In this document: piece after piece, positions 10,866-34,583 of the stretch
Layout: every line of letters begins with the position of its first letter
Position numbering within the stretch: the stretch's first letter is position 1
Assembly (NCBI GenBank): GCA_964519305.1
Contig: CAZFHY010000016.1
Location: forward strand, 42,592 to 106,591
Length of the DNA: 64,000 nucleotides
Source of the DNA: Candidatus Undinarchaeota archaeon
Lineage (GTDB): Archaea; SpSt-1190; JASMDC01
Direction: 5' to 3'
Notes under the pieces: generated by a model
The model's input: only the letters and a program-made list of their open reading frames with translations
What the model was told of the DNA's origin: nothing
Databases searched by the model: none
Program-made: the position numbers and the translations under genes

Positions 10866-10872
10866 GCGGTCC

Positions 10873-15056: not shown

Positions 15057-15956
15057 GTGCGTATCCTCTACCTCTCCGACATACACGGCAACCTCCTCCT
15101 CCTGCGTCGCGCGCTTGCGATCGCGCAGGAGAAGAAGGCCGACCTGGTGGTGCTCGGCGGCGACCTGTGCTGCCGGCTCGACCTCCACATAGTCGTGTCC
15201 GAGGGGGACGCGCACGTGCACTTCGACGAGGAGCTGGAGGACGGCGAGGATATCGAGGACCCGCAGGAGGTGGAGAGGTCCCTTTGGGAGCAGGGCATAC
15301 CATGCATGGTGGTCGATGTGGAGGAGCTCGAGGCCTTGCAGGAGGAGCTTGCTGATCCCGAACTGGGGGCCGGTTTCTACGACGGGCTCCAGATGCAATC
15401 ACTGCAATTGGTGGCCGACGCGATCAATGCATCGCCCGTACCCGTCGTGTGCATACCCGGTAACGATGATCCCGAAGGCACGGACGCCATGCTCAAGAAG
15501 CTGAAGGTGACCAGCCTCCACGGCCGTACCAAGCGCGTGAAGGGATACACCTTCGTCGGTTTCGGAGGTATCAATTTCACACCATTGCGGACCACCAACC
15601 TCGAGTTCGAGGAGCTGGAGCTGAGAGAACAGATCGTCAAGACGTCGAAGAAGGCCAAGCCGCCTGTCGTGCTCGTCGTCCACGCACCGCCGCTGAACAC
15701 CAACCTCGACGAGGTGCCCTCGGGCAGGCACGTTGGGAGCTCGGGAGTGCGGGACGCGATCAAGGACGTGAAGCCCGTGCTCTCCCTGCACGGCCATATC
15801 CACGAATCGGTTGGGATGGACCGTATAGGTCCGACGATGTGCGTGAACACCGGCAGTTTCTACGAGGACGACCTGCTCTCGGCCGCCGTTATCGAGCTTT
15901 CGGGCAAGGACGTGAGCGTCAAGTTCCTGTCGGAGGAATGCGAGCCCGGGAAATGA
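15057..15956 (+). CDS. metallophosphoesterase (calcineurin-like)
   Basis: SDIHG, GGDL, PGNDD, HAPP, HGHIHE; GTG start just after apgM. Confidence 0.9.
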   Translation: MRILYLSDIHGNLLLLRRALAIAQEKKADLVVLGGDLCCRLDLHIVVSEGDAHVHFDEELEDGEDIEDPQEVERSLWEQGIPCMVVDVEELEALQEELADPELGAGFYDGLQMQSLQLVADAINASPVPVVCIPGNDDPEGTDAMLKKLKVTSLHGRTKRVKGYTFVGFGGINFTPLRTTNLEFEELELREQIVKTSKKAKPPVVLVVHAPPLNTNLDEVPSGRHVGSSGVRDAIKDVKPVLSLHGHIHESVGMDRIGPTMCVNTGSFYEDDLLSAAVIELSGKDVSVKFLSEECEPGK

Positions 15957-16021
15957 GCCTTCCGGCCGGCAATCCCAAGCTTATTTAAAAGAACAACCTC
16001 TTTTGGTTGGAGGGAGTAGGT

Positions 16022-16741
16022 ATGTCAGGTAGCGTCATCATCATCGACCGGTGCGGGGACATCTCGCTGACCTCGTCCGAGCCTGGGGGCATCTCTGTCA
16101 TGGTCGAGGCCCTCCAGAGCAGGGATATCGAGGTCCGTATCTTCCGGGACAGGGAGTTCATCCAGACCGACCTCGACTGCGACTGCGTGTTCATCGCTTA
16201 TCCCACGGCGTCCTTCACCGAGACCGAGATAACCGCGCTCCACCGCTACGTCAACGCCGGTGGCGGTCTCTTCCTCATCGGCGAGTGGGGGAACACATCG
16301 AACAACACCAGCATCCTCAACTCTATCGCGGAAAAGTACTCTGTCGCCTTCAATCCCGACCGCATCTGCGATCCGCAGTACTTCATCCGGGACGGTTTCC
16401 AGTCCAAGATCTACGATGTGAAGGTATTCAACCTGCGCCAGCACCCCATCACCCGCGGTGTGCGCGAGTTCCGCATCGTGGCCGCATGCTCTCTCAACGC
16501 CCCGTACGACAACGTCATCGCGTGGGCTTCCAAGGCCTCTTTCGGCGACCTCGACTTCGACTCGGAGCAGGACGCCTACGAGGCCGGACAGTACCTGCCC
16601 GTAATGGCCACCGTTGAGTACGGCCGGGGGCGTGTGGCGTTCATCGGCGACCTGTCGTTCATGTCCAACCAGCACATCCTGAACATGAACAATGGTCAGT
16701 TGCTCATGAACATCATCCTCTTCCTCATGAAGAAGCTCTAG
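16022..16741 (+). CDS. DUF4350/GATase-like (class I glutamine amidotransferase-like fold) protein
   Basis: FTETEITALHRYVNAGGGLFLIGE, HPITRGV, GRGRVAFIGD...N...N.QLLMN. Confidence 0.75.
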   Translation: MSGSVIIIDRCGDISLTSSEPGGISVMVEALQSRDIEVRIFRDREFIQTDLDCDCVFIAYPTASFTETEITALHRYVNAGGGLFLIGEWGNTSNNTSILNSIAEKYSVAFNPDRICDPQYFIRDGFQSKIYDVKVFNLRQHPITRGVREFRIVAACSLNAPYDNVIAWASKASFGDLDFDSEQDAYEAGQYLPVMATVEYGRGRVAFIGDLSFMSNQHILNMNNGQLLMNIILFLMKKL

Positions 16742-16751
16742 GCTGGCCGGG

Positions 16752-17477
16752 ATGGAGCTCCTCCTCCTTGGCACGGGCAACGCTTTCACTCCACAGGGCA
16801 GACTGTGGTCGGGAGCGCTCCTCGACGGCCGTCTCCTCCTCGACTGCCCGGCCACCACGCTCCCCCGCCTGCGCGAGCACGGAATAGATCCCTGTTGCAT
16901 AGATGGCGTCGTTCTATCGCATGGGCACTTCGACCATATCGCCGGCCTGCCCTTCCTGCTCCTCGAGTACCGCTTCCGGACGCCGCGGGACGGGCCGCTG
17001 ACAGTGGCCTGCCATCCGGGGACCTGGGCCGCGGTACAACGCCTCATCGAGCTCTCGTATCCCGGTACGTTCCCTCCCGACTTGCTGGAGGGGCTGTTGC
17101 TGCATCATCCGGGAAAGGAGGGTGCAGTTGCGGGCATCGATTTCCATCGCATGCCGGTCCACCACACGTCGCATCTGCCCTGCTGTGGCTACCGTCTGTC
17201 GTGCGGTCCGACGACGCTCGCCTATACGGGGGATACAGGCCCCGGACCCGAGCTCGACGCCCTTCTTGACGGTGCGGACGTGGCGCTCATCGAGGTGGGC
17301 GAGCGCGAACCGGTGGGCGGGCACTGCTGCCCGGCGACCATCCGGGAGCTGGCCGGTCGTTTCGGGAGCTGCCGCTTCCTGCTCACCCACGTGCACGAGG
17401 ACGATGGTGCTCTGACCTCGCTGGAGGACCTGTCAAACGTCCACCTGCTCAGTGACGGGGAGCGTGTGCAGCTCTAG
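16752..17477 (+). CDS. MBL-fold metallohydrolase, RNase Z/BN-like
   Basis: LLGTG, SHGHFDHIAG, YTGDT, LLTH. Confidence 0.85.
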   Translation: MELLLLGTGNAFTPQGRLWSGALLDGRLLLDCPATTLPRLREHGIDPCCIDGVVLSHGHFDHIAGLPFLLLEYRFRTPRDGPLTVACHPGTWAAVQRLIELSYPGTFPPDLLEGLLLHHPGKEGAVAGIDFHRMPVHHTSHLPCCGYRLSCGPTTLAYTGDTGPGPELDALLDGADVALIEVGEREPVGGHCCPATIRELAGRFGSCRFLLTHVHEDDGALTSLEDLSNVHLLSDGERVQL

Positions 17478-18811
17478 AACTTACCTGCCACCAGGTCGGC
17501 GGCGATCTTGCTCGCGCGTGAGGCCAGTTCTGCAGAGATCGTCCCATCTTCCACGGCCGCGCTCAGCTGCTCCTCGTTGACTATCTTGCGCTCACCTTCT
17601 TTCTCCACGACAGCGATGCCGAAGCTCACGTAGGACACGCCCTGCGGCCTGAGCTCGATGGGCGTACAGATAGTATGGTTGCGGAACGTCTCGTTCCCCT
17701 CCGGATCGAAGTAGATGGTGGGGAACGTCCATGCACCCTGTTGGATCTCCACTAGGGCAAGGTCGCCCACGTGGGTCGGGCCCATGAGCATGAGGTCGGT
17801 ACCGTCGAACGAGCGCACGTCGACCTCCCACGCCCGGCGCTTGCCGGTGACGGTCAGCTCCTCGATCTCGATAGTGGCCCCCGGACGCAGCTTCTGCAGC
17901 GCACGGCGGAGTATGGCGGAAGCACCCCGCTCACCCTTCTCGCCCAGCTCCTCGATGACCTCGATGGCGAACCCCGCCTCGGGTCCGAGAGAGGACAGGA
18001 AGTGGTGGTGCGGTATGGTGGGCGTCGAGACCGCACGCAGCTCGTCCAGACCCTCCATGGCCTCATAGGGGAAGAGCACCTTGAGGAAGTCGTGGGGCGA
18101 GTACAGCAGACCCACCTCGTCGTCGCCTTCCATGAGCTGCTCGAGCCGCTCGAGGATCTCCCGCTTCTCGATGACCTCTTTCTCCAGCGTCTTCACGTTG
18201 GCGTTCTGTGCCTCGATCTTCCAGTGGATGCCCCAGCTCACGGGCCGGAGTGTCTCTCCCAGCTGGATGAGCACGTCGGACCGCTCGGGGTCCATGCCAT
18301 CGGCCGCGGTGACGTCCGTCACCGATGAGAACACGAGGTGCCGGGACGGGACCGATATGGTCTGGCTGACGATGGGACGCAGCGGTGGACGCGGGACGTC
18401 AACGACCTGTATGATGGGCCGGTCGCCCTGCTCGAAGGACTGGTGTGTGAACTTGAACGGGAGGTAGCCTTCGCACACGTCCAGGTCCACGATAGCGCCC
18501 TCGTTGAGAAGATGGAGCACCTCGCCCCGGTAGATGTTGCCGATCTCGACGTAGTCGGTAGGGACGAGCGCACCGAGCCGGTCACGGATCGCGTTCGCGA
18601 CCGCGTCCCGCTCCGGACCCACCACGGACACACCGCGGTGGCTGGGAAGATGATGTACTATGTTATCGCCCGGGCTCTCGGCCCCACCGGTCACGGGCGC
18701 GAACCCGGCATCGGTGAGTAGCCTAGTCAGCGGCGTCGAAAAGGCGCCGCTGAGCCTGACCCGCGGGACGTTCTTCCCTTTGTTCTTCGTCTTCCCTTTG
18801 CTCGGGCTCAT
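17474..18811 (-). CDS. FAU-1-like RNA-binding protein/ribonuclease (RNase E/G N-terminal-like plus DUF402-like)
   Basis: VRLSGAFSTPLTRLL (cf. VRGIYSTALTKLL), S1 domain, WGIHW, PTIPHHH, ICTPIEL; start probably ATG 18811. Confidence 0.7.
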   Translation of the reverse strand: MSPSKGKTKNKGKNVPRVRLSGAFSTPLTRLLTDAGFAPVTGGAESPGDNIVHHLPSHRGVSVVGPERDAVANAIRDRLGALVPTDYVEIGNIYRGEVLHLLNEGAIVDLDVCEGYLPFKFTHQSFEQGDRPIIQVVDVPRPPLRPIVSQTISVPSRHLVFSSVTDVTAADGMDPERSDVLIQLGETLRPVSWGIHWKIEAQNANVKTLEKEVIEKREILERLEQLMEGDDEVGLLYSPHDFLKVLFPYEAMEGLDELRAVSTPTIPHHHFLSSLGPEAGFAIEVIEELGEKGERGASAILRRALQKLRPGATIEIEELTVTGKRRAWEVDVRSFDGTDLMLMGPTHVGDLALVEIQQGAWTFPTIYFDPEGNETFRNHTICTPIELRPQGVSYVSFGIAVVEKEGERKIVNEEQLSAAVEDGTISAELASRASKIAADLVAGKF

Positions 18812-19322
18812 GATGCATTTCCTCCCTTGTCCGTTCCTCGTGGCCCCCACTGACCTGGCGCCGCCCTTCGGCGGTGAGCTCCAGGTAATCGCCGTCCCAG
18901 CGGAGACGGTGTGAGCGGACGAGGACCTCGACGAGACGTCTTGCCTGGAACGCCTCGCCCACGACCCGGTTCTCGACCAGGAATCCCGCGGCCATGTCGC
19001 CGCGCACCCTCTTGGCCTGCTGGAACGCCTCCAGCGCCCGGACCATCCTGTCGGGCCGTCGTCGTCCGGCACCCAGCTCTTCTACGACCTGCTCGATATG
19101 CTTGTCCTCCTCCTCCACCTTCAGGCTGAGGGCCCTGAAGGACGGGCGGAGCTTGAGCACGATTAGGTCGGATAGGTCCTGGATGAAGGTCTCCAGATGT
19201 AGCGCGCGCCGTTCCCGCGACGAGAGCGCCCTGTCGAGCGCATCCGCGGCGGAGCGGAGCATACGGTCCTCGCGTTCCTGCTCTGAAAGGTCTCCGTCCA
19301 GCACGATGCCCCTCGGGAGCAT
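18723..19322 (-). CDS. hypothetical protein
   Basis: Coding-like ORF with a possible C-terminal wHTH (YLELTAEGR); overlaps the next gene by ~90 nt. Confidence 0.55.
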   Translation of the reverse strand: MLPRGIVLDGDLSEQEREDRMLRSAADALDRALSSRERRALHLETFIQDLSDLIVLKLRPSFRALSLKVEEEDKHIEQVVEELGAGRRRPDRMVRALEAFQQAKRVRGDMAAGFLVENRVVGEAFQARRLVEVLVRSHRLRWDGDYLELTAEGRRQVSGGHEERTREEMHHEPEQREDEEQREERPAGQAQRRLFDAAD

Positions 19323-19377
19323 GGCGTGAGAGGATATAAAAAGCTATCCCCACACCCCACGCCCACGGGTGTCCGTT

Positions 19378-21660
19378 ATGCCAGACGACGCGATCGAACT
19401 ACGGGTTGGAGAGATCCCAACGACCATGCAGCAGGACGTGGGGAGGGGGATAGTCCGCCTCGACACGAACACCATGGGCACGCTGGGGATCAGCCCCGGG
19501 GCCGTCGTGGAGATCGAGGGCAAGCGGACGACCGCCGCCATCGCGGACCGCGCCTACCCCAGCGACGTCGGTATGCGCATCGTCCGGATGGACGGTCTCA
19601 CCCGGCGTAACGCAGGCACCACCATCGGCGACACCATCACGGTACGTGCGGCCGAGTTCAACGAAGCGGACCACATCAGCATCGCGCCCGCCCAGGAAGG
19701 CGTCACCGTGCGCATGCCCGGCGAGGTCGTGGCAAAGACGCTCATCGGCCGGTCCGCCGTCAAGGGCGACGTCATCGAGCTGCGCTCGCTGGCCGCTCCG
19801 CACCCGTCCCATCCTTTCGACGAGTTCTACGAGTTCCTCTCCGACGAGCTGGCGTTCGGCAGGCTCGGCATGGGCCAGTCACGCTTCATGGTCGTTAGCA
19901 CGGCGCCCAAGGGCGTTGTGCGCATCACCGAGTCCACCAAGATCGAGGTGCTCCCCGAGGCCGCTGAGGTCGAGAGCGAGCGCATCCCCGAGGTTACCTA
20001 CGAGGACATCGGCGGCCTATCCACGGAAGTGCGCCGGGTCCGCGAGATGATCGAGCTCCCGCTCAAGCATCCCGAGCTCTTCGAGCGCCTGGGCATCGAT
20101 CCGCCCACGGGCGTGCTCCTGTACGGCCCTCCGGGCACCGGAAAGACCCTGCTCGCCAAGGCCGTGGCCAACGAGTCCAACGCCAACTTCGTGTCCATCA
20201 ACGGTCCCGAGATCATGTCCAAGTACGTGGGCGAGGCCGAGAAACGGCTCCGCGAGCTGTTCGAGGAGGCGCAGAAGAACGCGCCCTCCATCATCTTCAT
20301 CGACGAGATCGACGCCATCGCGCCCAAGCGCGAGGACGTGGTCGGCGGCGTGGAGGGCCGAGTGGTGGCCCAGATGCTGGCCTCCATGGACGGTATCAAC
20401 TCCCGCGGCCAGGTCATCGTAATCGCGGCCACCAACCGCGAGACCGCCATGGACCCTGCGCTCCGCCGCGGGGGCCGGTTCGACCGCGAGATCGAGATCG
20501 GTGTCCCCGATCGCAAGGGCCGGAAAGAGGTCCTGCAGATCCACACCCGCAACATGCCGCTCGCCGAGGACGTTAGCCTCGACGAGATCGCCAACACCGC
20601 ACACGGCTTTGTCGGCAGCGACCTCCAGGGACTGTGCAAGGAAGCGGCCATGAGCGCTCTGCGACGTATCCTCCCGGAGATCAACATCGACGACGACGAG
20701 CGACTGCCCCGCGAGGTGCTGGAGAAGCTCATCGTCAACCGGCAGGACTACGTCGAAGGCCTCAAGGTCGTCCGTCCGTCCGCCATGCGCGAGGTACTGG
20801 TCGAGGTACCGAACATCACGTGGGGCGACATCGGCGGCTGCGACGATATCAAACAGGAGCTGGTCGAGGCCGTGGAATGGCCGCTGAAGAACAAGGCGGC
20901 GTTCGACCGTCTGGGCATCAGGCCCCCCACGGGCATCCTCCTCTACGGTCCTCCGGGCACGGGAAAGACCCTGCTAGCAAAGGCCGTCTCCAACGAGAGC
21001 GAGGCCAACTTCATCCTGGTCAAGGGCCCCGAGGTGCTTTCCAAGTGGCTCGGTGAGTCCGAGAAGGCCATCCGCGAGATCTTCCGCAAGGCGCGCCAGG
21101 TGGCGCCCACGGTCGTGTTCTTCGACGAGCTCGACGCCATCGCATCATCGCGCGGCCAGGAGGGCTCGCACAAGGCAGAAGAACGCGTGGTCAACCAGAT
21201 GCTCACCGAGATCGACGGACTGGAGGACCTCCAGGACGTCGTGATCATCGGCGCGACCAACCGCCCCGATATCATCGACCGCGGTCTCATGCGCGCGGGC
21301 CGGTTCGACCGCCACATCCTCGTTGGCGCTCCCGACGAGGCCGCCCGTCTCGAGATCCTGAAGGTGCACACCAAGGGCATGCCGCTGGCCAAGGACGTCG
21401 ACCTCAAGAAGCTGGCGAAAGAGACCGAGAACTGCGTGGGCAGCGACCTCGAGTCCATCTGTCGCGAGGCCGCGATCTTTGCGCTCCGCAAGGACATGGA
21501 GGCCAAGGAGGTCAAATTGGCCCAGTTCGAGGAGGCCCGCGAGAAGGTGCACCCCTCCCTCACAAAGGAGGTCAAGAAGTTCTACGAGCTCGTGCAGAAG
21601 GCGCTCGCTGCTCCACAGATCAAGGAAGAGCCAGCAGACGACCTCTTCTACATGCGGTGA
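19378..21660 (+). CDS. cdc48: CDC48/VAT (p97) AAA+ ATPase
   Basis: N domain ([10 protein letters not shown]), two AAA modules with [26 protein letters not shown]; C-terminal hydrophobic-Y-x tail (FYMR). Confidence 0.97.
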
Positions 21661-21671
21661 GGTAGTCGGCC

Positions 21672-22367
21672 GTGACGCGCCTGACGGTGCTGTACGACAA
21701 CCGGGTAGCTCCCGGTGTATCTGACACGCTCCGCTGCGGGTGGGGCTTTTCCTGCCTGGCCGAGGAGTCCAGCGGGAAGGTGCTCTTCGACGCCGGGTTC
21801 GACGGAGGCATCCTGCTCGAGAACATGGCGACGCTCGGTATAGAGCCCCGGTCCGTCGACGCCGTGGTGCTGTCGCACACCCACTGGGACCATCTGGGCG
21901 GCCTGGCCCGGTTCCTCGAGTCCCGGGGGGATGTACCGCTGTACGTTCCCGAGGGCATCCCGCGCCATCTGCGCATCGAGCTTTCTAACCGCGCCGACGT
22001 GACGGTGACCGGGACGGAGGACGGCAGCAGGGTGGTTCCGGGCATCCGCACGACAGCTTCTATCGGGGACAAGCTGAAGGAGCAGGCGCTCGTGGTGGAC
22101 GCCGGTAGCGGTGTGCTGGTGGTCACCGGCTGCTGTCATCCCGGGCTAGGTCCGACACTCGAGGCGGCGTCGCTCCACGGCCGCGTCAGGGGTATACTGG
22201 GCGGGCTGCACGAGGCGAAGGGGCCGGAGCAGCTTTCCGGTCTGTCACTGGTAGCACCGTGCCATTGCACGAAGGAACCGGACCGGTTCCCGGAGCTGTT
22301 CCCACGGGCATACCAGCAGGTGGGCGTGGGGAGCGTCGTTGCGGTGGAGACCGCGCCCGGCCGGTGA
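21672..22367 (+). CDS. MBL-fold metallohydrolase (COG1237-like)
   Basis: LYDN, WGFSCL, LSHTHWDHLGGL, TGCCHPG, GGLH, PCHCT. Confidence 0.88.
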   Translation: MTRLTVLYDNRVAPGVSDTLRCGWGFSCLAEESSGKVLFDAGFDGGILLENMATLGIEPRSVDAVVLSHTHWDHLGGLARFLESRGDVPLYVPEGIPRHLRIELSNRADVTVTGTEDGSRVVPGIRTTASIGDKLKEQALVVDAGSGVLVVTGCCHPGLGPTLEAASLHGRVRGILGGLHEAKGPEQLSGLSLVAPCHCTKEPDRFPELFPRAYQQVGVGSVVAVETAPGR

Positions 22368-22392
22368 CCGGGACTGTATCCCGTCGATCGGC

Positions 22393-23094
22393 CTATGCCC
22401 GGCCGAACTGCTTGGGTTCCGTGGCCGATGCCGAGCTCGCCACGTGGATGTACTCCTGCTCCTGGTACTCCGTGAGCGGTACGGCACCGACCGCGAACAT
22501 CCAGGTGATCGGGTCCATCGTCACCGGGTCCGCGTCATCGACGAATAAGTTCAGCTCGCCGCCCGCCCTCAGCACCTGGGCGTTGAGCTTCTTATCGTCG
22601 GTGTGGAAGGCCTTGTAGTATCGCCCCGCAACGGGATCGTAGTCGTAGACGGTGAACGACACCTCCATGTCGGTGTTGGACATGCTCGTTTGGAGCAGGC
22701 CGACGATCTGGTTCTTGTTATCGGTGGATACCAGGGTGGAGAACTGGAGCGGGTCGGTGTACCCTCCACCCCAGTACATGTCCGCGCCGACACCGATCAC
22801 CTTGATGGGCTGACCGGTCGTGGGATCGGCGACGGTGAGGTCCGACCTCATCTGCTGGCCCGCGATCTTGAGGGAGTTGACGTGGAACACCGTGCCCTGG
22901 TAGCCTTGATCGAAGTTGAAGACCTGTTCCATGTCACAGGTGTACATGTACTCCACGTTCGCAGGTGGTGCCTTCGCTTCCTCTCCGGGCGCGGCCGGGC
23001 TCAGGTACCCGCTGTTGATCACGATAGCGACAACGACGAGGCATACAGCCACCAGCGCGTACTTGGCATGTTCATCCATTCCCACGGTAATCAT
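22393..23094 (-). CDS. PPAN-leader protein with a beta-rich domain, putative contractile-system tube (Hcp/IglC-like) protein
   Basis: TM helix + N + linker + PPAN, then FNF.Q...NSLKIAG...DP...WGGG.TDPLQFS.LVS..NK...YDYDP...YYK.F; start 23094 or 23079. Confidence 0.6.
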   Translation of the reverse strand: MITVGMDEHAKYALVAVCLVVVAIVINSGYLSPAAPGEEAKAPPANVEYMYTCDMEQVFNFDQGYQGTVFHVNSLKIAGQQMRSDLTVADPTTGQPIKVIGVGADMYWGGGYTDPLQFSTLVSTDNKNQIVGLLQTSMSNTDMEVSFTVYDYDPVAGRYYKAFHTDDKKLNAQVLRAGGELNLFVDDADPVTMDPITWMFAVGAVPLTEYQEQEYIHVASSASATEPKQFGRA

Positions 23095-23195
23095 CTCACG
23101 CCGACCGCTCGTGGTCAACACATAAAAAACCGACCTCATCCCGCACCGTCCGTCCGGCGAGGTCGGGAGTTCCGTGAACGTTGAACGGGGGCCCC

Positions 23196-23223
23196 AAAAG
23201 GCCTCGGAATGAGGTCTTTTTTT
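23196..23223 (+). terminator. hairpin followed by a T-tract (terminator-like)
   Basis: AAAAGGCCTC-GGAAT-GAGGTCTTTT-TTT: 10-bp stem with one G-U pair. Confidence 0.4.
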
Positions 23224-23269
23224 CATCCAGCACCTATTTATGGCAGCCACACCATGACTTACCGTACGT

Positions 23270-23995
23270 ATGGTCGACACCAGATACGTACTGGCTGCGG
23301 TCGGGCTCCTTATCCTCGGTGCTATCCTCTCCATCAACTGCACGACCGGAGTGGACGTCGCAGCGATCGGGAGCGACGACGCTAGCGTCGAGGTCATCGG
23401 CGGCAAGTACGAGCTGGAACTGTTCACAGCAGAGATAGGTCACGGCCCTGCTGCACGCGAGATCACACGGATGCGGTACACAGTGGGCAACCGCACCATC
23501 GTCCCCGACCAGACGCTCCCGCGCTCCATGCGCCCCGGCCTCGACTGGCTGCAGAGGAACACGCTGGAGGGCGACTATGTCCTTGCCTGGTGGGACTACG
23601 GTCATGCAATCCGCGCCTACGGCGAACGCGAGCCGGTGATCGATGCGCCCTCGAAGGAGCTTATGCCGCTGACGGTGTCCAAGTACATCGGGATGTCCGC
23701 GGACGACATTATCTGCCCCGACTGTGCGCCCCACGCGCTCGTCCGGGACGTGGCAAAAGCCCTGCTCACCGACGATCCCGCCGTTACTAGAAAGATCATG
23801 AAGTCCCACGGTGCACGGTACCTGTACATACACGCCGATGACGCCACCAAGGCGGACGCTTTCTTCATCGCAGCAGGACGTGAGCCGGGGCAGGTGAAGG
23901 GGACGGTCCTGGGCAAGGCGTTCGTCGGATCACGGCTCGACGGGTACTGGCTGGTGTACTCGGACGCCACGGTGCACATCTACGAGATCGCGTGA
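23270..23995 (+). CDS. stand-alone AglB/STT3 C-terminal globular domain with an N-terminal signal/anchor
   Basis: LDWLQRNT...VLAWWDYGHAI...R, DVAKALLTDD, GARYLY; lacks the multi-TM OST domain. Confidence 0.75.
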   Translation: MVDTRYVLAAVGLLILGAILSINCTTGVDVAAIGSDDASVEVIGGKYELELFTAEIGHGPAAREITRMRYTVGNRTIVPDQTLPRSMRPGLDWLQRNTLEGDYVLAWWDYGHAIRAYGEREPVIDAPSKELMPLTVSKYIGMSADDIICPDCAPHALVRDVAKALLTDDPAVTRKIMKSHGARYLYIHADDATKADAFFIAAGREPGQVKGTVLGKAFVGSRLDGYWLVYSDATVHIYEIA

Positions 23996-23999
23996 GCGC

Positions 24000-24368
24000 C
24001 TACGGCGGCTTTCTCATCTTTTCCCACTCAATATCATCGGTCCGGTATCCTGCCAGCCAGATTCTCTCTAATAGGTCCGCTCTTTCCGCGCTCGTAAGCT
24101 CCTGGCTCGACTCGGCCCAGTCCATCAGGTTATCCAGTTGGAACAGGAAATCATCCCTTTCTTTTTCAGTGAACCCCCACCCAACCTTATTACGCAACGT
24201 CATCTCGATGTATTGTAATTGCTGAATGTTCTCGAACTTGGTCCAGCTGTTCGCCGGAGGTGCCTGTTCCTGGTCCCGTGTACCCAGGCTCTTGAGGACG
24301 AGCACGTTGGACGCGAGCGACAGCACGGTGAGCACGAGGACGGTGCGGAGAAGGGTCCGGTCGTTCAT
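24000..24368 (-). CDS. PPAN-leader small secreted/anchored protein 1
   Basis: MNDRTLLRTVLVLTVLSLASNVLVLKSL...APPANS plus an ~80-aa helical cargo. Confidence 0.85.
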   Translation of the reverse strand: MNDRTLLRTVLVLTVLSLASNVLVLKSLGTRDQEQAPPANSWTKFENIQQLQYIEMTLRNKVGWGFTEKERDDFLFQLDNLMDWAESSQELTSAERADLLERIWLAGYRTDDIEWEKMRKPP

Positions 24369-24405
24369 GATGTGTGTGCGAGCGTTCGGTTTTTTATGTG
24401 CGATG
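24246..24405 (-). repeat. promoter+leader cassette, copy 1
   Basis: 160-bp ungapped match to 24662-24821; hand alignment gives 20 mismatches (~87% identity). Confidence 0.9.
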
Positions 24406-24436
24406 CCGGCGGGGTCCGCGTCTACCGCCGCTACCG

Positions 24437-24784
24437 TCAGCTGTTCGCTTCCACGACCGTGCTCAGGTTATCGATTATCGATCGCAGCTGGACCTTTTCC
24501 ACTTCATTGAGCTGTTTACTCGAGATGATCCTTTCTTTCAGGTCGTTCAGTTGGTCCAGGATATCATCCCTGTCGCCCTCGCTGATGTTCCCGTTGGAGA
24601 TCAGCTGCTGCACACTGGACTTGATCTGCAGTATTTCGCGGAAGAAGGCTGCTGACGCGGCGCTGTTCGCCGGTGGCGCTATCTCCTGCTCCTGCGTGCC
24701 CAGGCTCTTGAGGACTAGCACGTTGGACGCGAGCGACAGCACTGCGAGCACGAGGACTGCGTGGAGAAGGGATCGGTCGTTCAT
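24437..24784 (-). CDS. PPAN-leader small secreted/anchored protein 2
   Basis: MNDRSLLHAVLVLAVLSLASNVLVLKSL...APPANS plus an amphipathic helical cargo. Confidence 0.85.
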   Translation of the reverse strand: MNDRSLLHAVLVLAVLSLASNVLVLKSLGTQEQEIAPPANSAASAAFFREILQIKSSVQQLISNGNISEGDRDDILDQLNDLKERIISSKQLNEVEKVQLRSIIDNLSTVVEANS

Positions 24785-24821
24785 GGTGTGTGTGCGAGCG
24801 TTCTGTTTTTTATGTGCGATG
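24662..24821 (-). repeat. promoter+leader cassette, copy 2
   Basis: Matches copy 1; includes the upstream CACATAAAAAA box. Confidence 0.9.
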
Positions 24822-24827
24822 TCAGGA

Positions 24828-25235
24828 TCAGCCCCGGAACCCCAGACCCCTGAGGAGGTCCCTGAGCTCCCAGATCACGGCCTTCACGTCCTCCTTCGAA
24901 CGCTGGTCCATGACGAGCTCCCTCAGTTTGCGGGCGGTCTGGTCTAATTCGAGATGTACGGGCGATCTCGGAAGGTTATCGAGACGGTTCTCGAACTCGA
25001 ACACCTCCATCAGGACCTCGTCGGTCCCGTTGTTGGTGAGGAGCATTCCCTCGTCGACCATGACCTCGATCTTGAACAGCATCCTCTCCAGATCTCCCAC
25101 CATGTAGGGGAGGTAGTTCGCCGGCGGCGTCAATGCATCCTCGGAGGCCCTCAGGTCCTTGAGTACGAGCACGTTGGTCGCGAGCGACAGCACGGCGAGC
25201 ACGAGGACGGCGCGAAGAAGGGAGCGGTCGTTCAT
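24828..25235 (-). CDS. PPAN-leader small secreted/anchored protein 3
   Basis: MNDRSLLRAVLVLAVLSLATNVLVLKDL...TPPANY plus a helical cargo. Confidence 0.85.
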   Translation of the reverse strand: MNDRSLLRAVLVLAVLSLATNVLVLKDLRASEDALTPPANYLPYMVGDLERMLFKIEVMVDEGMLLTNNGTDEVLMEVFEFENRLDNLPRSPVHLELDQTARKLRELVMDQRSKEDVKAVIWELRDLLRGLGFRG

Positions 25236-25266
25236 GGTGCGGGTGTGGGCGGTACCCTTTTTATGT
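25116..25266 (-). repeat. promoter+leader cassette, copy 3 (more diverged)
   Basis: Shares gttcgccgg, agcacgttgg, gcgagcgacagcac, cggtcgttcat and ttttatgt with copies 1 and 2. Confidence 0.75.
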
Positions 25267-25331
25267 CCGACACCCCCGGGGAAGGCTTAAATACCCGGGT
25301 CCGGCGCGCGGTCTGTCAGGACGGAGTTCAC

Positions 25332-25805
25332 ATGGGATACTGCGCACTTACCGAGTACGGCGGCGAGGCCGTCAACATGATCCACGGCGACGGTTACGCC
25401 GAGTTCACCATGGACGCAGGCAAGTTCCTTGGCCTGTTCGGCAAGGGCATGGACGAGCAGGAGATCAACAAGGGCTACCGTTCGGCCGAGTTCGCCCTCG
25501 AGCTGGCCAACAAGGACCTGGGCCTCGACCTCGAGGTCGGTCACGACGAGCGCAATCCCATCTACATGAACTTCAAGTTCGAGCCCGCCGATCCCCCGGA
25601 CGACCACTACATCCACACGGTCGCCAAGGGTACTATCCAGTACGAGCGCGGCGGTACCTTCAGCTCTGACAAGGTGAACGTGTCGGTCGAGTTCCGGCGC
25701 TCCAAGATGGACGAGGTGGCGTTCCACGACCTTGCGGCAGCGCTGGAGGACCGCGGGTTCGAGAACACCACCACCCCCATCTGGGTGTACGGCAGCTTCT
25801 CGTAG
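25332..25805 (+). CDS. hypothetical protein
   Basis: Strongly GC3-biased ORF, GGAG RBS, TTAAATA box at ~25287. Confidence 0.8.
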   Translation: MGYCALTEYGGEAVNMIHGDGYAEFTMDAGKFLGLFGKGMDEQEINKGYRSAEFALELANKDLGLDLEVGHDERNPIYMNFKFEPADPPDDHYIHTVAKGTIQYERGGTFSSDKVNVSVEFRRSKMDEVAFHDLAAALEDRGFENTTTPIWVYGSFS

Positions 25806-25863
25806 TGACGCCCGCTCCGGTAACGAGTGGTTTTTTATTGATTAGAGCCCTTCTGCGGTAGCG

Positions 25864-28107: not shown

Positions 28108-28593
28108 TCATCGCTTCCCGGCAAGTCGCCCCAGCTCGTCGCCGGTCAGCCGGTACACGGTCCACTCGTCCATGGCCTTGGCCCCGATCGCCTCGTAGAA
28201 GTCGATGGCAGGCTTGTTCCAGTCCAGCACCCACCACTCCAGCCGCCCGCACCCCCTATCCACGGCAAGGGCTGCAAGGTGTGCGAGCAGTTTCTTCCCG
28301 AAACCCTTCCCGCGGTGGGCAGGCCGGACGTACAGGTCCTCGATGTAGAGGCCGTGACGACCGAGGAACGTGGAGTAGTTATGGAAGAACAGGGCGTGCC
28401 CCACGGGCTTTCCGTCGAGCTCGGCGATGACGACCTCGGCCTCCTTGCGGTCGAAGATGGAAGCTTCGATGGCCTCTACGTCGGCAACGACCTCGTGAAG
28501 GAGCTTCTCGTACTCGGCCAGCTCCCGGATGAACCCGAGGATGGTCGCGGCGTCGGTCCGTACCGCAGGCCTGATGGTGAACCCGTCGTCCAT
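28108..28593 (-). CDS. GNAT N-acetyltransferase (diamine/spermidine acetyltransferase-like)
   Basis: IRELAEYEK, NYSTFLGRHGLYIEDLYVRPAHRGKGFG, VLDWNKPAIDFY. Confidence 0.92.
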   Translation of the reverse strand: MDDGFTIRPAVRTDAATILGFIRELAEYEKLLHEVVADVEAIEASIFDRKEAEVVIAELDGKPVGHALFFHNYSTFLGRHGLYIEDLYVRPAHRGKGFGKKLLAHLAALAVDRGCGRLEWWVLDWNKPAIDFYEAIGAKAMDEWTVYRLTGDELGRLAGKR

Positions 28594-28883
28594 GGTGTGA
28601 TGTGGGGATGTAATCAATAAGAAGTTACGGTCTTCGTTCGTTGCGCCCCTGAGCGCGTTCGGGGCGTCAGGTGGAGTTTGTGATTTCCTGCTTGGATTGG
28701 GTGGTGGGTTATGGATAATTTCTATTCAGCTATGTGTGAGCTAATGCTATTTAATTTCATAATATTCTTAAATGTAAATATATCTATACTCTTCATATTC
28801 AATAATGATGTGATTGGTTAAATTCGAAATTTATTAAAACAAGGTCTGGTCTGTTATTTCCTTACCCAAGGAAGGAAAGCAGG

Positions 28884-31412
28884 ATGTGCAAAATGAACAG
28901 AAGTAACTTCCTTTTAGAAGTCAGTCTTCTCGTAATAATCCTTTTTTATGCTCCTGTGATTGTCGGAGGTCTTGAGACATCGGAGTCAATCTCCACTAAC
29001 GGAGAAAACCAAAAGACTATATCATTGGACACATCTATCAACATATTATTCTCTCTTGAATGGGGGCGGGAAGGCAGGGACGATGGCGAATTCGATTTAC
29101 CCATAGATGTCGCAGTTGATAATGAAGGGAGAGTCTACATCGCAGATGCAGACAATGACCGGATTCAAGTGTTCGATAATGAGGGAAGGTTCATTACTAA
29201 ATGGGGTTCTCGGGGACGATCTCAAAGTGACTTATGGAATCCTCATAGTGTGGCTGTCGATAAGGATGGCAATGTCTATGTCGTAGACCAGATGAACGAA
29301 CATGTTAAGGTCTTTAATCCCGAGGGTGCCTTGGAAAAGGTATGGGATCATGTCGAAATGAGACCTATGTACGTTGCTGTCGGACAAAATGATAGAATAT
29401 ATGTAGTCGAATTCATTAGTCATAGGATTAGGGTCTTTTCCCCGGATGGTACATTATTGCAGACATGGAACCGTGGAAGAGGGGTGAGTCGGTTGACTTA
29501 TCCGCACGGGATTGCGGTTAATGGGAACGGTACTGCGTTTGTTGTTGATCGTAATGACCGTATTTTAGTATTCGATAAGAAAGGTAACTTCATAAGAGCA
29601 ATGGGCCAGCCTGGCTCTGAAGACGGCGAATTCGAGACTATCCTTGATATTGCATTAGATAATAATGGGAATCTCTTCTTGGTTGATAAAGGAAATAGTC
29701 GGATTCAGGTGTTGGATCAGAACGGTACTTTTCTCATGAAATGGGGTATTCTTGGGAGTGAAGAAGGTGAGTTCAATTATCCTTCTGGAATAGCGATTGA
29801 TAAGAATAACAATGTATACATAGCGGACAGGAAGAATTATCGTATCCAGAAGTTCATTCGAGTTAATACCGAGACCGATTGTTACACTGATAATGACTGT
29901 GCCCATGACAAGGAATGCATGAACGGAAGATGCATACCATTAGTCTGTGATGTCGATACGATAGCTTGTGATCACCAATGCATGAATCAAGAGGGTGGGC
30001 GCTGTTGTGATGGTGAGTGGCGTCATGATGTCGAGTGTTGTAGGAATGAGGAATGTAAAGGTGGCTTCTTATGCATCTCCAATACATGTATGAGGACTGG
30101 TTCTTTCTCACCAGAGGAAGCCAGTCCGTGGCTCCGGGATGTACTGGAGTTCAATCATTATGAGCTCTTACATGGCATCACAGATGGTTACGTCGCATTC
30201 TTACTTGCCCGCGAGCGTGATCAATCTCTTACCTATGGAAACAAGACTCGGATAATTATCCGTGTCGAACTGTTCAACGATGATCTCTTGTATCGGGTCA
30301 TTGGAGAGGTATATGGAACAAACAGTATGGCCTTCACTCGCCCAGACCTCATTATACTCAATGATGAATGGGGACATATCCAGCGGATTATTCGTATGAA
30401 CGACACAGTATTGACTCAGGAGCATGAATTGCGAATTGATAATACTACATCAGTGTCATCAGATGGATTACGGTTCTTACTGCATAGGCCAAAGAGAATA
30501 ACTTACGTAGAGAGCGTGGCGCCATATAGGATTATCAAGAATATTCCACTCGAATTCGAATCCTACTTCTGCTCAAGTTATGGTAATATGGTCGCGGTGG
30601 TGCCCTTCAACGAAAGACGCGTTGATGTCTACAACAACACAAATCATTCTATGATACTGTCCTCGCCGGAATTCAATGAGGGACTCACGTCAGTACTCGT
30701 CCACGACAATCGTGCATATGGTGGTACACAAAAGGGACGTCTTGTAGCATGGAACCTTACAAGCGAATCTGGGGAGCGGGTGATGTCGGGGCATACAGGC
30801 GCTCTACAGGCACTTGTAGCTGACGATCTTTACGTGTACTCTGGTGGGGTTGATGGTGTTATCATCGTCCGTGAAACCGACACGCTTTTCGGACGCTTCA
30901 GACTGCGGGGTCACGAGGCGCCAGTAAAAGGAATCATTCCCCTAGGCGAACGAATTCTTACATTCGATAACACTACAATACGATTGTGGGAGCGACCGCG
31001 ACGTCATAGCCCAACAGTCGTGACTCCGGCGATAAACATCACGCAAAGACCAATCCTGACCCCAAATGAGACTCTCGATCAGAATGTCACCGATGCCTTA
31101 TCTATTAACGACGTCACGAGTCACCCTATAGAACGAGAATCCGTTTGCGGTGATGGTATGTGTGGTGACAGTGAGAGCTCTGAAGCATGTTGTCAGGATT
31201 GCGGCTGTTCTCCCGGAATGAAGTGCGTCGATGATGTCTGTAGAACATCCTCGGTACCAATATGGATCACACCAGATCCCGATGAGGGTATCCATACTGA
31301 TTCGGAAGAATCCACTCACTCATCCGACCTAAGGCCCGCAGCGGGAACGATTAGTGTATTATTACTATTGGGAATTGTGGCAAGTTCGCAACTAATAATG
31401 AAGAAAGGATAG
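28884..31412 (+). CDS. secreted/surface NHL-repeat beta-propeller protein with Cys-rich modules, a WD40-like propeller and a C-terminal TM anchor
   Basis: Signal peptide; ~6 NHL repeats (P.DVAVD..G.VYIAD..N.RIQVF); Cys-rich blocks; GH...V..L repeats; CGDGMC; TM+KKG tail; AT-richer DNA. Confidence 0.88.
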   Translation: MCKMNRSNFLLEVSLLVIILFYAPVIVGGLETSESISTNGENQKTISLDTSINILFSLEWGREGRDDGEFDLPIDVAVDNEGRVYIADADNDRIQVFDNEGRFITKWGSRGRSQSDLWNPHSVAVDKDGNVYVVDQMNEHVKVFNPEGALEKVWDHVEMRPMYVAVGQNDRIYVVEFISHRIRVFSPDGTLLQTWNRGRGVSRLTYPHGIAVNGNGTAFVVDRNDRILVFDKKGNFIRAMGQPGSEDGEFETILDIALDNNGNLFLVDKGNSRIQVLDQNGTFLMKWGILGSEEGEFNYPSGIAIDKNNNVYIADRKNYRIQKFIRVNTETDCYTDNDCAHDKECMNGRCIPLVCDVDTIACDHQCMNQEGGRCCDGEWRHDVECCRNEECKGGFLCISNTCMRTGSFSPEEASPWLRDVLEFNHYELLHGITDGYVAFLLARERDQSLTYGNKTRIIIRVELFNDDLLYRVIGEVYGTNSMAFTRPDLIILNDEWGHIQRIIRMNDTVLTQEHELRIDNTTSVSSDGLRFLLHRPKRITYVESVAPYRIIKNIPLEFESYFCSSYGNMVAVVPFNERRVDVYNNTNHSMILSSPEFNEGLTSVLVHDNRAYGGTQKGRLVAWNLTSESGERVMSGHTGALQALVADDLYVYSGGVDGVIIVRETDTLFGRFRLRGHEAPVKGIIPLGERILTFDNTTIRLWERPRRHSPTVVTPAINITQRPILTPNETLDQNVTDALSINDVTSHPIERESVCGDGMCGDSESSEACCQDCGCSPGMKCVDDVCRTSSVPIWITPDPDEGIHTDSEESTHSSDLRPAAGTISVLLLLGIVASSQLIMKKG

Positions 31413-31519
31413 TGTAGTGGGAACTCCCTTGTACAAAAAGGATGTGTAGGATTGATACGTCTGCACTTCCGAACCCTCAGCAATCCTTATATACCGGCCA
31501 TCGTGCCGCACGCATCCTC

Positions 31520-32371
31520 ATGACGGTGAACGCTGGCGACCTGTCGTACGCCGACCTTATCGACAGTGCTGCTGACATGCTCACCGATATCGCGGACCAT
31601 AACACCAGCAACTACCGCGAGTCCCCGACAGAGTATGCACTTGACGCCGTGCTCCGGTACGACGACCTTCCCACGTACGACACCGTGCTGAAGAGCCGGC
31701 CTGCCATAACGTCGGTGGCGTCCAGCCTCTACCATATCAAAGAGGACCACATCGGTTTCGACGACGATATCGACCGCAACTTCTACAGGCGGGTATCACG
31801 GATAGGTGTGGACGTGTTCGGCAGGCACCGTGACCTCTACGTCAAGCAGTCATGGGAAGGGCTCCACAAGGAAGCGATCGGGCTCGAGCTGTCCAACCTC
31901 CTTACCGATACGAACACGAAGTACGTGATCACCGACGACATGCTCGTGACCGAAGAGATCCAGGGCGATCCCAGCTACGGACGTGCCGTGGACGTTTCCG
32001 ATCCGGGGTACGCGTACGAGTTCGGGAAATGGGAGGCCTTTGCCGAGCTGATGCACTTTTCCGACAGGCAGCCTGCCAACGTCCGCTGGGACGGGGAGCA
32101 CCTGAACGATATCGATTACGGGCAGTTCATGTCGTACACGTTCAAGCACAGCCTTCCCGAACCGGATCCTTCAATGTCAGGACACGTGCGGGCGGGCAGG
32201 GACGATGCACGACGGACGATCGTCGAGAACATCAACAAGCACAGTTACAGGGTGAAGAGCCTGTTCACGGCCATGGTCGAGGACTATCACAACGGCGAGA
32301 GGAAATTGTGCTTCGGGACACCCGAGAAACAGTTACGAAGGATAGCCGACACGCTGCGCGGGTGGAAGTAG
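31520..32371 (+). CDS. atypical kinase-like protein (HipA/PI3-PI4-kinase-like catalytic motifs)
   Basis: LYVK...KEAIG, FSDRQPANV (DRxxxN), DIDYG; CTTATATA box at ~31486. Confidence 0.6.
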   Translation: MTVNAGDLSYADLIDSAADMLTDIADHNTSNYRESPTEYALDAVLRYDDLPTYDTVLKSRPAITSVASSLYHIKEDHIGFDDDIDRNFYRRVSRIGVDVFGRHRDLYVKQSWEGLHKEAIGLELSNLLTDTNTKYVITDDMLVTEEIQGDPSYGRAVDVSDPGYAYEFGKWEAFAELMHFSDRQPANVRWDGEHLNDIDYGQFMSYTFKHSLPEPDPSMSGHVRAGRDDARRTIVENINKHSYRVKSLFTAMVEDYHNGERKLCFGTPEKQLRRIADTLRGWK

Positions 32372-32390
32372 GGACTTCGGGCCGGATGGC

Positions 32391-33437
32391 TCAACTGAGA
32401 CAGTCGCGGGGCCGTTCCCAGAACAGCCTGGTCGGTTCGCCGGTCCTGCACAGACCCTTCACGTTCGCAGGAGCCTCATCGATATCAATAGAGGACTCCT
32501 CATCCATAGAGGGGTCCATCTTGACCATGGGGCTCCCGGTCAGGCTCCCACGAACGTCGATGTCGGGGCAGGTGAACAGCTCGAGCCTATCGAAATCGAG
32601 GACCAGGGTGTCCATGGGATGGAGCAGTAACGGCCTGTTAGTAGTAGAGACCGATGAGATCACCACGTCACCGAGCACGTAGCTCATGAGCAGCTGTTCC
32701 GGGTCCTTTGCAGACACTACGTTGATGTACATCCTTTCGATCGTCTTCCCGGCCCCCGCCAGTTCGTAGAGGGGAAGCGTCGTCGAGTCGCTCAGCTTGG
32801 TGATGGTGAGCGGCCCGAACGCCATGGGGCAGGGGGGCGGGGTCGGCTCTGGTTTCTTGGTGGGTGCGGGGGCCACCCTGGTGATGGTGCCTTTGATGGT
32901 ACCGGTCCCCGTGCTCTCCTCGGGCACCTCGTTGAACTTGTAGGTCCCGTCCCATCCCCCGTTCGAGCTCGACCCCGACGTCGTCGTATGGGTCGTCCCC
33001 GACACTCCGGTGGTCAGCATGGTCGATCCCTGGGTATGCAGTCCTATCGTTCCCTCGAACATGAGGCCTGTAAGGTCGACCGACACGGACGGGCCCGCAT
33101 CGGGCGAGGAAAGCTCGGGCGGGGCCAGTGACAGGTCGACGGCGGCCGCCGCGATCCAGTTCCCGGACGTGGTGGACGTCCTGGTCGTCCTGTACGGGTG
33201 ATCGAAGAAGTACTTGGCAGTACCCTTGATCCCCTGTATGTGAACGTACACGGCCGAGGGCAGGGACCCCTTTACCGGAGCGAGCACCGCAGAGTTGTCC
33301 GGTGCGGTGTTAGCGGGTGGTGCATCTGGCGCCGTGGTGCTGTCCGCAGAGCGGGTCTCGTTGAGCACCAGGCCGTTGGACACCAGCGAGAGCGCGGCGA
33401 TGACAAGGACAATATGGAGGAGCGTGCGGTCGTTCAT
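32391..33437 (-). CDS. PPAN-leader Hcp/TssD-like tube protein with a large loop insertion
   Basis: Leader + PPANT; VYVHIQGIKG, NWI, PLTITKLSDSTTLPLYEL...GKTIE, YVLGDVVISSVS and DTLVLDFDRL match the Hcp consensus. Confidence 0.75.
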   Translation of the reverse strand: MNDRTLLHIVLVIAALSLVSNGLVLNETRSADSTTAPDAPPANTAPDNSAVLAPVKGSLPSAVYVHIQGIKGTAKYFFDHPYRTTRTSTTSGNWIAAAAVDLSLAPPELSSPDAGPSVSVDLTGLMFEGTIGLHTQGSTMLTTGVSGTTHTTTSGSSSNGGWDGTYKFNEVPEESTGTGTIKGTITRVAPAPTKKPEPTPPPCPMAFGPLTITKLSDSTTLPLYELAGAGKTIERMYINVVSAKDPEQLLMSYVLGDVVISSVSTTNRPLLLHPMDTLVLDFDRLELFTCPDIDVRGSLTGSPMVKMDPSMDEESSIDIDEAPANVKGLCRTGEPTRLFWERPRDCLS

Positions 33438-33562
33438 GATGCGTCACGACGGGGGGAAGGGATAAAAGCCTATTGACGAGCGTCGGCGCGTGGTCCTGAG
33501 CGCATCTGCCTATTTACCTGATACGCCCCTCGTGCTGGCCAGGACGTCGAGGGGACCGGCTC

Positions 33563-33913
33563 TCATGCTGTACGCTGGAGGATCTCACTGAAGTAACGAC
33601 ATGCACTCTTATCTTTTGGCGACGTGACACTTCCTAAGCATTTGCCTTGCCACTCGATCGACTTCGAGTAGCACGTCCTGTAACAACCGTTCACGTTCAT
33701 AATTTCATCGAACGTGGGCTCGGCGAACGTGTAGCTCCTCTGTAGTCTATTGCAGATCTTGTTGCACCCCGAGTCAAAAAGGGTGTTCGCGGGCGGGAGC
33801 ACGGGGTCCTCGGCAGCGACCGTGGTCTTCAGCTCCTTGAGCGTCAGGCCGTTGATGGCAAGCATCAGCAGGCAGAGCACGAGCACCACCCGGAGAAGCG
33901 TCTTATCGTTCAT
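33563..33913 (-). CDS. PPAN-leader Cys-rich small protein
   Basis: MNDKTLLRVVLVL...INGLTL...LPPANT; 6 Cys in the cargo (two CxxxC). Confidence 0.85.
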   Translation of the reverse strand: MNDKTLLRVVLVLCLLMLAINGLTLKELKTTVAAEDPVLPPANTLFDSGCNKICNRLQRSYTFAEPTFDEIMNVNGCYRTCYSKSIEWQGKCLGSVTSPKDKSACRYFSEILQRTA

Positions 33914-34059
33914 GGCCGGTACGTGCGATACGCATCGTTATAAAGGGATGTCAGGCCGTGCCGTGCCCATCTGATCCCTGGTCGAGCGTGTACCCGGTAT
34001 ATCCCGGCCTGCGCACCCCCGGTCATATACATAAAGGATAGTGCCCGGATCACCTGACC

Positions 34060-34371
34060 ATGGATGATCGCACGTTGATACGTTTCGCGCTGGTGATGAG
34101 CGTTCTCGCGCTCGTGGCGAACGGGATAGTAATGAACAGACAGATGACACTTGTTAGCACCCTTGATGATGCGAGCGTGCAGCCACCATTGAATGATGCT
34201 TGCGCTTCTTACGATGTAACTCAATGTTTGGCTACAGAAAGATACTGTGAATGGGACTCTAGTCAAAGGAAATGCTATGATCATGGATGCCACAGATACA
34301 GAGCCTTGAGCGCAGAATGCCGTTCTGCTGAAGGATGTTACACAAAGTGCTTTTGTGATGGAGCATCATAA
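34060..34371 (+). CDS. PP(L)N-leader Cys-rich small protein
   Basis: MDDRTLIRFALV...ANGIVM...QPPLND; 9 Cys in an ~57-aa cargo; CATAAAG box at ~34030. Confidence 0.85.
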   Translation: MDDRTLIRFALVMSVLALVANGIVMNRQMTLVSTLDDASVQPPLNDACASYDVTQCLATERYCEWDSSQRKCYDHGCHRYRALSAECRSAEGCYTKCFCDGAS

Positions 34372-34583
34372 CACCGGGACTGGTGACAAGACGGTCGGAT
34401 CGGTCCTCTTGGACTAGGAAAGCAGTTGTGGGGACATTGGTGTTCATTCCAGCAAAAGCCGGCAATATCCCCACAACAGGTCCGTTAGGACAATGGATGG
34501 CCGGACCTCACGAACGTATAAAGGTTCCGGCTCCCGGCCGGCGCACCCCACTTCCTGAACTATAAGGTACTTGACCCCGGAGA

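Follow-up and report, generated by a model that had tools for sequence, protein, structure and literature searches.

Three direct repeats in the 64,000-nt stretch of DNA analysed here (the window), which comes from an uncultured marine archaeon, correspond to the core promoters of three tandem minus-strand genes, A, B and C, together with their first 40 codons. The reading that we favour, with modest confidence, is that these genes are tandem duplicates encoding membrane-anchored, legumain-released helical proteins of a single exported leader family. The features of the trio are listed below.

24000..24368, minus strand: gene A, 122 aa, leader (codons 1-40) plus predicted helical cargo (ORF list; leader HMM E 1.1e-19)
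24437..24784, minus strand: gene B, 115 aa, leader plus predicted three-helix cargo (ORF list; AF2 model)
24828..25235, minus strand: gene C, 135 aa, leader plus predicted four-helix-bundle cargo (ORF list; AF2 model)
24249..24260, minus strand: PPAN codons of A (residues 37-40; proposed cut after Asn40; alignments)
24665..24676, minus strand: PPAN codons of B (alignments)
25116..25127, minus strand: PPAN codons of C (alignments)
24390..24397, minus strand: TATA-like box of A, ATAAAAAA (sequence)
24806..24813, minus strand: TATA-like box of B (sequence)
25257..25264, minus strand: TATA-like box of C, ATAAAAAG (sequence)

Three genes with a common promoter and leader

A repeat search returned one family with three direct 160-nt copies, at 24246-24405, 24662-24821 (88%) and 25113-25272 (75%), spaced 416 and 451 nt apart. 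Exact identities for the three pairs were 140/160, 120/160 and 121/160. The first-pass annotation had arrived at the first of these figures by hand, from an ungapped alignment of 24246-24405 with 24662-24821, and its count was exact on recount; the third copy that it had placed near ~25116-25266 was located at 25113-25272. The similarity within 24000-25266 is far above chance, which confirms the earlier observation. In minus-strand orientation, each copy begins about 37 nt upstream of the ATG and extends through codon 41.

The boundaries of the similarity were followed in 10-nt bins. Between A and B, identity was 8-10/10 across -40 to +100, fell to 5/10 at +101-110, within the linker, rose again to 9/10 over +111-120, where the PPAN codons lie, and was 1-5/10 past them. 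The claim that identity ends right after PPANS therefore holds for this drop, but not for the whole gene, as a second A-B island follows about 90 nt further on. This island is offset by one codon, reads AGGGATGAT.TCCTG..CCAACTG at the DNA level and has a local score of 25, compared with 9.4+-1.3 for shuffled sequence (0/1000 shuffles reached it).

Each copy carries its own A/T box, either ATAAAAAA or ATAAAAAG, which occupies -29 to -22 relative to the ATG, and the 37 nt upstream of the ATG are identical at 35/37 positions between A and B. The spacer between C and B is 43 nt long and is all promoter. The genome contains 15 copies of CACATAAAAA, most of them 20-35 nt ahead of an ATG, a distribution that marks it as a general promoter type of this organism. 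No Shine-Dalgarno-like run was found in the 21-nt spacer between box and ATG of any copy. The typical distance between TATA box and start in archaea is well established, and given this usual spacing, the position of the TATA-like boxes suggests that A, B and C would be transcribed as leaderless mRNAs.

In the trio the leader consists of M-N-D-R-x-L-L, a TM helix, a floppy linker and P-P-A-N. The N-termini conform to MNDR[ST]LL[RH].VLVL.VLSLA[ST]NVLVLK, followed by a 10-residue variable linker and then PPAN, which occupies residues 37-40 in all three proteins; the leader HMM matched them with E values from 1e-17 to 1e-19.

Homology among the cargos was examined separately from that of the leaders. 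The cargos of A and B are clearly related (Smith-Waterman z 8.4, reached by 0/2000 shuffles). C is tied in through P0021, an outside ortholog of C with 60% identity, which the A cargo matched with z 7.3 (BLASTP E 3e-5). Direct comparisons of the A-C and B-C cargos were not significant, as 1496/2000 and 476/2000 shuffles, respectively, reached the observed score. BLASTP with the cargos alone gave no match among A, B and C at E<=10, an HMM of A+B found P0021 at an E of only 0.086, and an HMM of C+P0021 found neither A nor B. AF2 models of B and C share one plan, namely a TM helix, a linker ending in PPAN and a helical bundle from residue 41. For B (mean pLDDT 72) the helices span residues 3-29, 41-64, 69-88 and 94-113, with pLDDT<50 at 29-40; for C (mean pLDDT 78) they span 3-32, 41-61, 68-85, 92-109 and 114-133, with a floppy stretch at 33-40. 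In both models the only residues of low confidence are those that connect the TM helix to the bundle, and PPAN is among them. A Foldseek search of the C model against the PDB returned only generic helical bundles (best E 0.038). From these alignments and models we conclude that the three cargos probably form one diverged helical-bundle family, firmly so for A and B and more weakly for C. Our guess is that they are surface or secreted interaction proteins.

The leader family and a candidate protease

The leader is found well beyond the trio. In this assembly of 3.63 Mb and 42 contigs, the leader HMM identified 29 ORFs, spread over 10 contigs, and a profile search recovered the same 29; seven of them lie in the window, when the divergent gene at 22393-23079 with its TM helix and PPAN is counted in. 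Among 1.84 billion representatives, the profile matched 61, of which 42 were not from this genome. In the family as a whole, the module starts with M-[ND]-D-R-x-L-L and continues with a TM helix, which contains a conserved Asn; a short, floppy linker then leads to the invariant P-x-N. The P-x-N is present in 29/29 leaders of this genome and in 41/42 outside ones (70/71), at a distance from the initial Met to the Asn of 36-51 residues across the family and of 38-49 in the 29. In these 71 leaders P2 is mostly Ala and P1' is variable. In 21 aligned leaders P38 and N40 are invariant and N21 nearly so. Window members of the family outside the trio include the following.

22393..23079, minus strand: a fourth nearby gene, 228 aa, divergent TM helix then PPAN (within 22340-23139, an 800-bp segment lacking in the same-genus genome G001)
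32391..33437, minus strand: family member, 348 aa, leader plus Hcp-like domain (leader HMM; PF05638 E 3.5e-9, 37.5 bits)
33563..33913, minus strand: family member, 116 aa, leader plus Cys-rich cargo (leader HMM)
34060..34371, plus strand: family member, 103 aa, leader (PPLN) plus Cys-rich cargo (leader HMM)

The proteins carried by this leader are mostly unrelated to one another (7/406 cargo pairs homologous at E<1e-3), and small, Cys-rich ones are common. The leader matches no Pfam or NCBIfam model, and none scored above its cut-off for the cargos of A, B or C. Among the 35 leader proteins scanned (23 from this genome and 12 from outside), two reached a Pfam cut-off, one Hcp-like and one CarboxypepD_reg-like. 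The cargo of the gene at 22393-23079 resembles the outside leader proteins P0008 and P0013.

Within the phylum, the leader was present in one of the 17 genomes examined, namely this one. Searches by leader pattern gave 69 matches in metagenome contigs and 7 in genome contigs, with none confirmed in either set, and word-based homolog searches outside this genome found P0003 and P0021 alone. Both appear to lie on a single 78.9-kb outside contig. The distribution is best explained by a lineage-restricted leader family with about 30 proteins in this genome, which are probably exported.

The Asn of the leader is invariant and the residue after it variable, a pattern that suggests an Asn-specific protease, and the genome encodes a candidate. 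Contig C6 carries the gene for a 697-aa protein with an N-terminal TM segment, a Peripla_BP_6 domain (34-318) and a Peptidase_C13 domain (444-677); the C13 match to PF01650 scored 172.4 bits against a cut-off of 22.8. Aligned with human legumain 4aw9 (E 3e-36), the archaeal protein conserves the catalytic His148 and Cys189 and all four S1 residues, Arg44, His45, Ser216 and Asp231. These four are named as the basis of the Asn specificity of legumain in the available portion of PMC4357240. A complex prediction with the C13 domain and residues 24-70 of B gave no answer (score 0.00). The legumain gene and the trio are on different contigs. Three leader-only mini-ORFs and a TM...APANSW gene flank the legumain gene.

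This neighborhood (L061 ~7600-14070, corresponding to C6 ~15600-22070) has no counterpart in G001. It also encodes an NHL protein with a pilin signal and, directly upstream of the legumain, a 389-aa double-Cache (dCache) protein; the mini-ORFs are 42-47 aa long, and the TM...APANSW protein has 117 aa with thrombospondin-type repeats.

A second genome places the two elements close together. An ANME-1 MAG encodes a legumain that is 62% identical and has the same TM-PBP-C13 architecture, and 1.4 kb away lies a leader-like gene, MEDKKLLY...APMN (profile E 1.2e-5). At this locus (L056 4645-8681) the legumain is followed by a stand-alone periplasmic-binding protein and then by the leader-like gene of 154 aa. 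A distant Prevotella genome with a C13 protein showed no leader-like gene.

The same-genus genome G001 serves as a natural experiment, as it is without both the ~30 candidate substrates and the candidate protease. This genome is 98% complete, and the genes flanking the trio are 78-91% identical to it at the nucleotide level. The leader family gave 0 matches in G001 (best E 0.67), and the best C13 match there reached only 30.7 bits. At the trio itself the difference is a clean indel of 1,266 bp. The blastn matches of window 23140-23998 and 25265-25809 meet at position 6617 of L060, where window positions 23998 and 25265 are next to each other in G001.

23999..25264, no strand: segment lacking in G001, exactly three promoter-plus-gene units (blastn; junction by eye)

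No target-site duplication was seen at the trio indel. Further gaps in G001, at 22340-23139 and 28446-34416, bear the remaining leader genes of the window; the flanks of the 22340-23139 indel are identical at 14/37 positions. The segment 28446-34416, without a match in G001, is probably acquired DNA. Within it, 28884-31412 (plus strand) encodes an 842-aa NHL-repeat-like protein with a GC3 of 0.44, compared with a genome mean of 0.74. Next to the trio, 23270-23995 (plus strand) encodes a 241-aa single-TM protein that has the AglB/STT3 WWDYG core motif alone (PF21436 E 1.9e-6), without the multi-TM domain; this gene is kept in G001 at 78.5% nucleotide identity.

Based on these observations, the following mechanism can be proposed. 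The leader helix would insert with its N-terminus inside and its C-terminus outside, so that a bundle of three or four helices would be tethered on the cell exterior. The membrane-anchored legumain, acting extracellularly, would then cut after the invariant Asn, the putative processing site, and the cut would free the cargo, whose first predicted helix begins at residue 41. Since the motif is C-terminal to the anchor, the cargo would be the leaving group, so that release rather than transfer is to be expected.

There are points against this mechanism. The joint absence of legumain and leaders concerns one genome pair and the gene neighborhood two genomes, and a protease that reads P-x-N alone leaves the conserved helix residues D3, R4 and N21 unexplained. 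In vivo sites of mouse legumain show no preference for Pro at P3 in the available portion of PMC10862022. A complex prediction with the C13 domain and residues 24-70 of B gave no answer (score 0.00).

A wider proposal, which we regard as possible rather than probable, is that MDDRxLL-TM-PxN is a new archaeal N-terminal sorting signal. A ligand-sensing membrane legumain would free about 30 unrelated proteins, the modules would have spread by recombination, and substrates and protease would be gained and lost as accessory DNA within the genus.

The leader could instead be an uncleaved signal-anchor that holds its cargo as a type II tether, with P-x-N as a hinge or as a site for recognition without proteolysis, for example in a modification or by an envelope partner. 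A hydrophobic stretch of ~22-28 residues is enough for a stable TM helix, conserved polar residues within it (N21) suggest helix-helix contacts, and the adjoining gene at 23270-23995 has the AglB/STT3 motif. However, in most members the invariant Asn is outside an N-x-S/T sequon, the residues next to it varying widely, and an invariant P1-like Asn before a variable residue is in keeping with a cleavage site. The mini-ORFs that consist of little more than the leader, stopping 1-6 residues past PPAN, are hard to see as tethers, and the legumain is co-absent with the leaders and a neighbor of leader genes. We consider this permanent tethering unlikely.

Two conventional readings of the leader are very improbable, namely a Sec signal processed by signal peptidase I and a class III signal of the pilin type processed by a prepilin peptidase. 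The few charged residues at the N-terminus and the hydrophobic run behind them would suit both, and pilin-like proteins are encoded in this genome (for example an L051 ORF beginning ...RRAQAAMEFLMSYGW), but their signal looks different from the leader. The hydrophobic run is not preceded by [KR]-[GA], the leaders reading D-R-[STNK]-L-L at that point. In an alignment read by eye, this run is 22+ residues long, compared with an h-region of 7-15 residues in Sec signals, and no consistent A-x-A, with small residues at -3 and -1, was seen after it; the residue before Asn21 was A, V, I or L. Neither signal explains an invariant P-x-N located 8-20 residues past the helix.

Probable tandem duplication versus cassette exchange

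The first-pass annotation proposed that a constant expression and export module is recombined onto variable C-termini, as in polymorphic toxin or antigenic-variation systems. In this reading, promoter and leader would recombine together as one cassette that moves from cargo to cargo, and gene conversion or site-directed exchange would keep its copies alike. Part of the proposal stands, since each copy in the trio has its own TATA-like box and leader and the same leader precedes unrelated cargos genome-wide; active recombination within the trio was not borne out. We rate cassette exchange as quite unlikely, and the evidence on both sides is given below.

Codon sharing at identical leader residues is high in the trio, at 21/23 for A-B, 19/22 for A-C and 18/24 for B-C compared with a family background of 0.50, and the 35/37 upstream identity of A and B points the same way. 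Substitution rates between A and B were lower in the leader (dN 0.10, dS 0.36) than in the cargo core (dN 0.53, dS 0.5-0.9), and a cargo range for dS of 0.5-1.06 gives the same order. Whole-cargo global alignments gave dS values of 1.06-1.72, which uncertain alignment inflates, and a reliably aligned 32-codon core was used instead. In that core, 9/12 identical residues share codons (including rare AGG, GAT and CAA), against 26/33 in the leader, so that codon sharing is not peculiar to the leader. A Fisher test of 21/23 against 10/20 (p 0.005) was discarded, since the alignment behind half of the 'identical' cargo residues was unreliable. The lower dS of the leader accords with the cassette reading; the overall pattern of dN and dS, with the dip in the linker and the recovery at PPAN, fits selection on functional parts.

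Near-identical upstream and leader DNA ahead of unrelated cargos is a family-wide feature and also speaks for exchange. Eight dispersed members (on contigs C8, C16, C17, C26 and C40) have 40-60 nt of upstream DNA in common while their cargos are unrelated. The shared element, GGATGCGCTCGGGACCACGCGCC...GGCTTTTATCCC, gave local scores of 19-41 against a null of 7.4+-1.5, with one copy in the window at 33438-33500. Between C8_3277 and C40_1943 the upstream score was 38 against the same null (7.4+-1.5), and C16_74982 and C40_1525 share 16/18 leader codons. The element could be the site of a common regulator or a co-duplicated promoter. Unrelated cargos behind one leader, with upstream DNA in common, indicate that the module has been joined to different cargos over evolutionary time.

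In the trio, several observations stand against shuffling. Silent or promoterless cassettes are absent, as A, B and C are each complete with their own ATG and TATA-like box. Conservation of the leader tracks its functional parts, high in the helix, low in the linker and high at PPAN, and does not form a uniform conversion tract. The C leader differs from that of its outside ortholog P0021 at 6/41 residues (by eye), fewer than the 14 that separate it from A and the 11 from B. In a low-depth relative contig, cargo C was identical at 146/166 positions, similar to its flank at 132/151. Pfam and NCBIfam searches of A, B, C and their neighbors revealed no toxin domain or immunity-like partner, and the spacers of 43 and 68 nt in the trio hold no ORF and hence no immunity gene.

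Cargo swapping, which the first-pass annotation had suggested looking for among strains or reads, was sought in four metagenome runs from two studies. No joints to alternative cargos and no differences at the locus were found in these data, which consist of contigs only and in some cases perhaps come from the source sample. With complete genes, homologous cargos, no toxin or immunity domains and no variants in the four runs, the likeness to a polymorphic toxin or antigenic-variation system was not upheld.

The composition of the cargos was also examined. They had been described as visibly AT-richer than the leaders, and raw GC is indeed 0.44-0.56 at 24000-24249 compared with 0.59-0.66 in the leader; codon usage, however, is unbroken across the border. 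GC3 of the A, B and C cargos is 0.66, 0.75 and 0.85, inside the 5-95% range of the genome (0.60-0.85). Because GC3 is normal, the AT-richness reflects the amino acids encoded, the difference lying in the first and second codon positions. A foreign origin of the cargo DNA was considered and set aside in view of these GC3 values. Diverged full-length paralogs without a break in codon usage, the pattern that the first-pass annotation had itself set against its proposal, are largely what we found.

Tandem duplication followed by divergence best accounts for these data. Identity falls sharply at PPAN most probably because a strongly constrained targeting and processing module there borders on a fast-diverging cargo, not because of a recent recombination junction, although with so few sites some gene conversion of promoter and leader may have taken place in the trio. 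More generally, a homology edge at a leader-cargo border is by itself no sign of cassette recombination, as unequal constraint on a tandem family explains it.

Relation to known processing and sorting systems

The closest parallel on the protease side is with the legumains or vacuolar processing enzymes (MEROPS C13), by which plants and animals mature pro-proteins at Asn. The archaeal enzyme has the catalytic His and Cys and the S1 pocket in common with them, and in both systems the substrates, predicted ones in the archaeal case, have an N-terminal pro-region that ends in an invariant Asn. It differs in being membrane-anchored and fused to a periplasmic-binding domain, and its candidate substrates, for which cleavage is predicted, share one dedicated TM leader. 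A literature search returned, in the portions of the sources available, nothing on prokaryotic legumains or on such a leader. If the favoured reading is correct, it would be the first case of a prokaryote maturing proteins through a dedicated leader and an asparaginyl endopeptidase.

On the substrate side, LPXTG/sortase, PGF-CTERM/archaeosortase and PEP-CTERM/exosortase are tripartite C-terminal sorting systems composed of a motif, a TM helix and a charged end. Like the archaeal leader, these signals serve many unrelated cargos per genome with one dedicated enzyme. The leader is their mirror image at the N-terminus, would be read by a different enzyme family and would lead to release instead of transfer. 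It would thus be an N-terminal counterpart of the sortase and archaeosortase signals, and the secretome of an uncultured lineage could be read from sequence.

Polymorphic toxin and antigenic-variation loci have in common with the trio a conserved 5' module ahead of variable 3' parts and an arrangement in tandem copies. The trio differs from them in having homologous cargos and neither silent cassettes, toxins, immunity genes nor variants among runs.

Prochlorosin-type RiPP precursors combine one conserved leader with many variable Cys-rich cores. The archaeal family similarly has one leader (in ~30 genes here) and many small Cys-rich cargos. Its leader contains a TM helix, unlike that of prochlorosins, no modification enzyme was identified for the family, and the proteins reach 348 aa, with folded domains (Hcp-like, CarboxypepD_reg) among the cargos. 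The leader-family cargo at 32391-33437 is a match to the T6SS Hcp domain (PF05638) in an archaeon.
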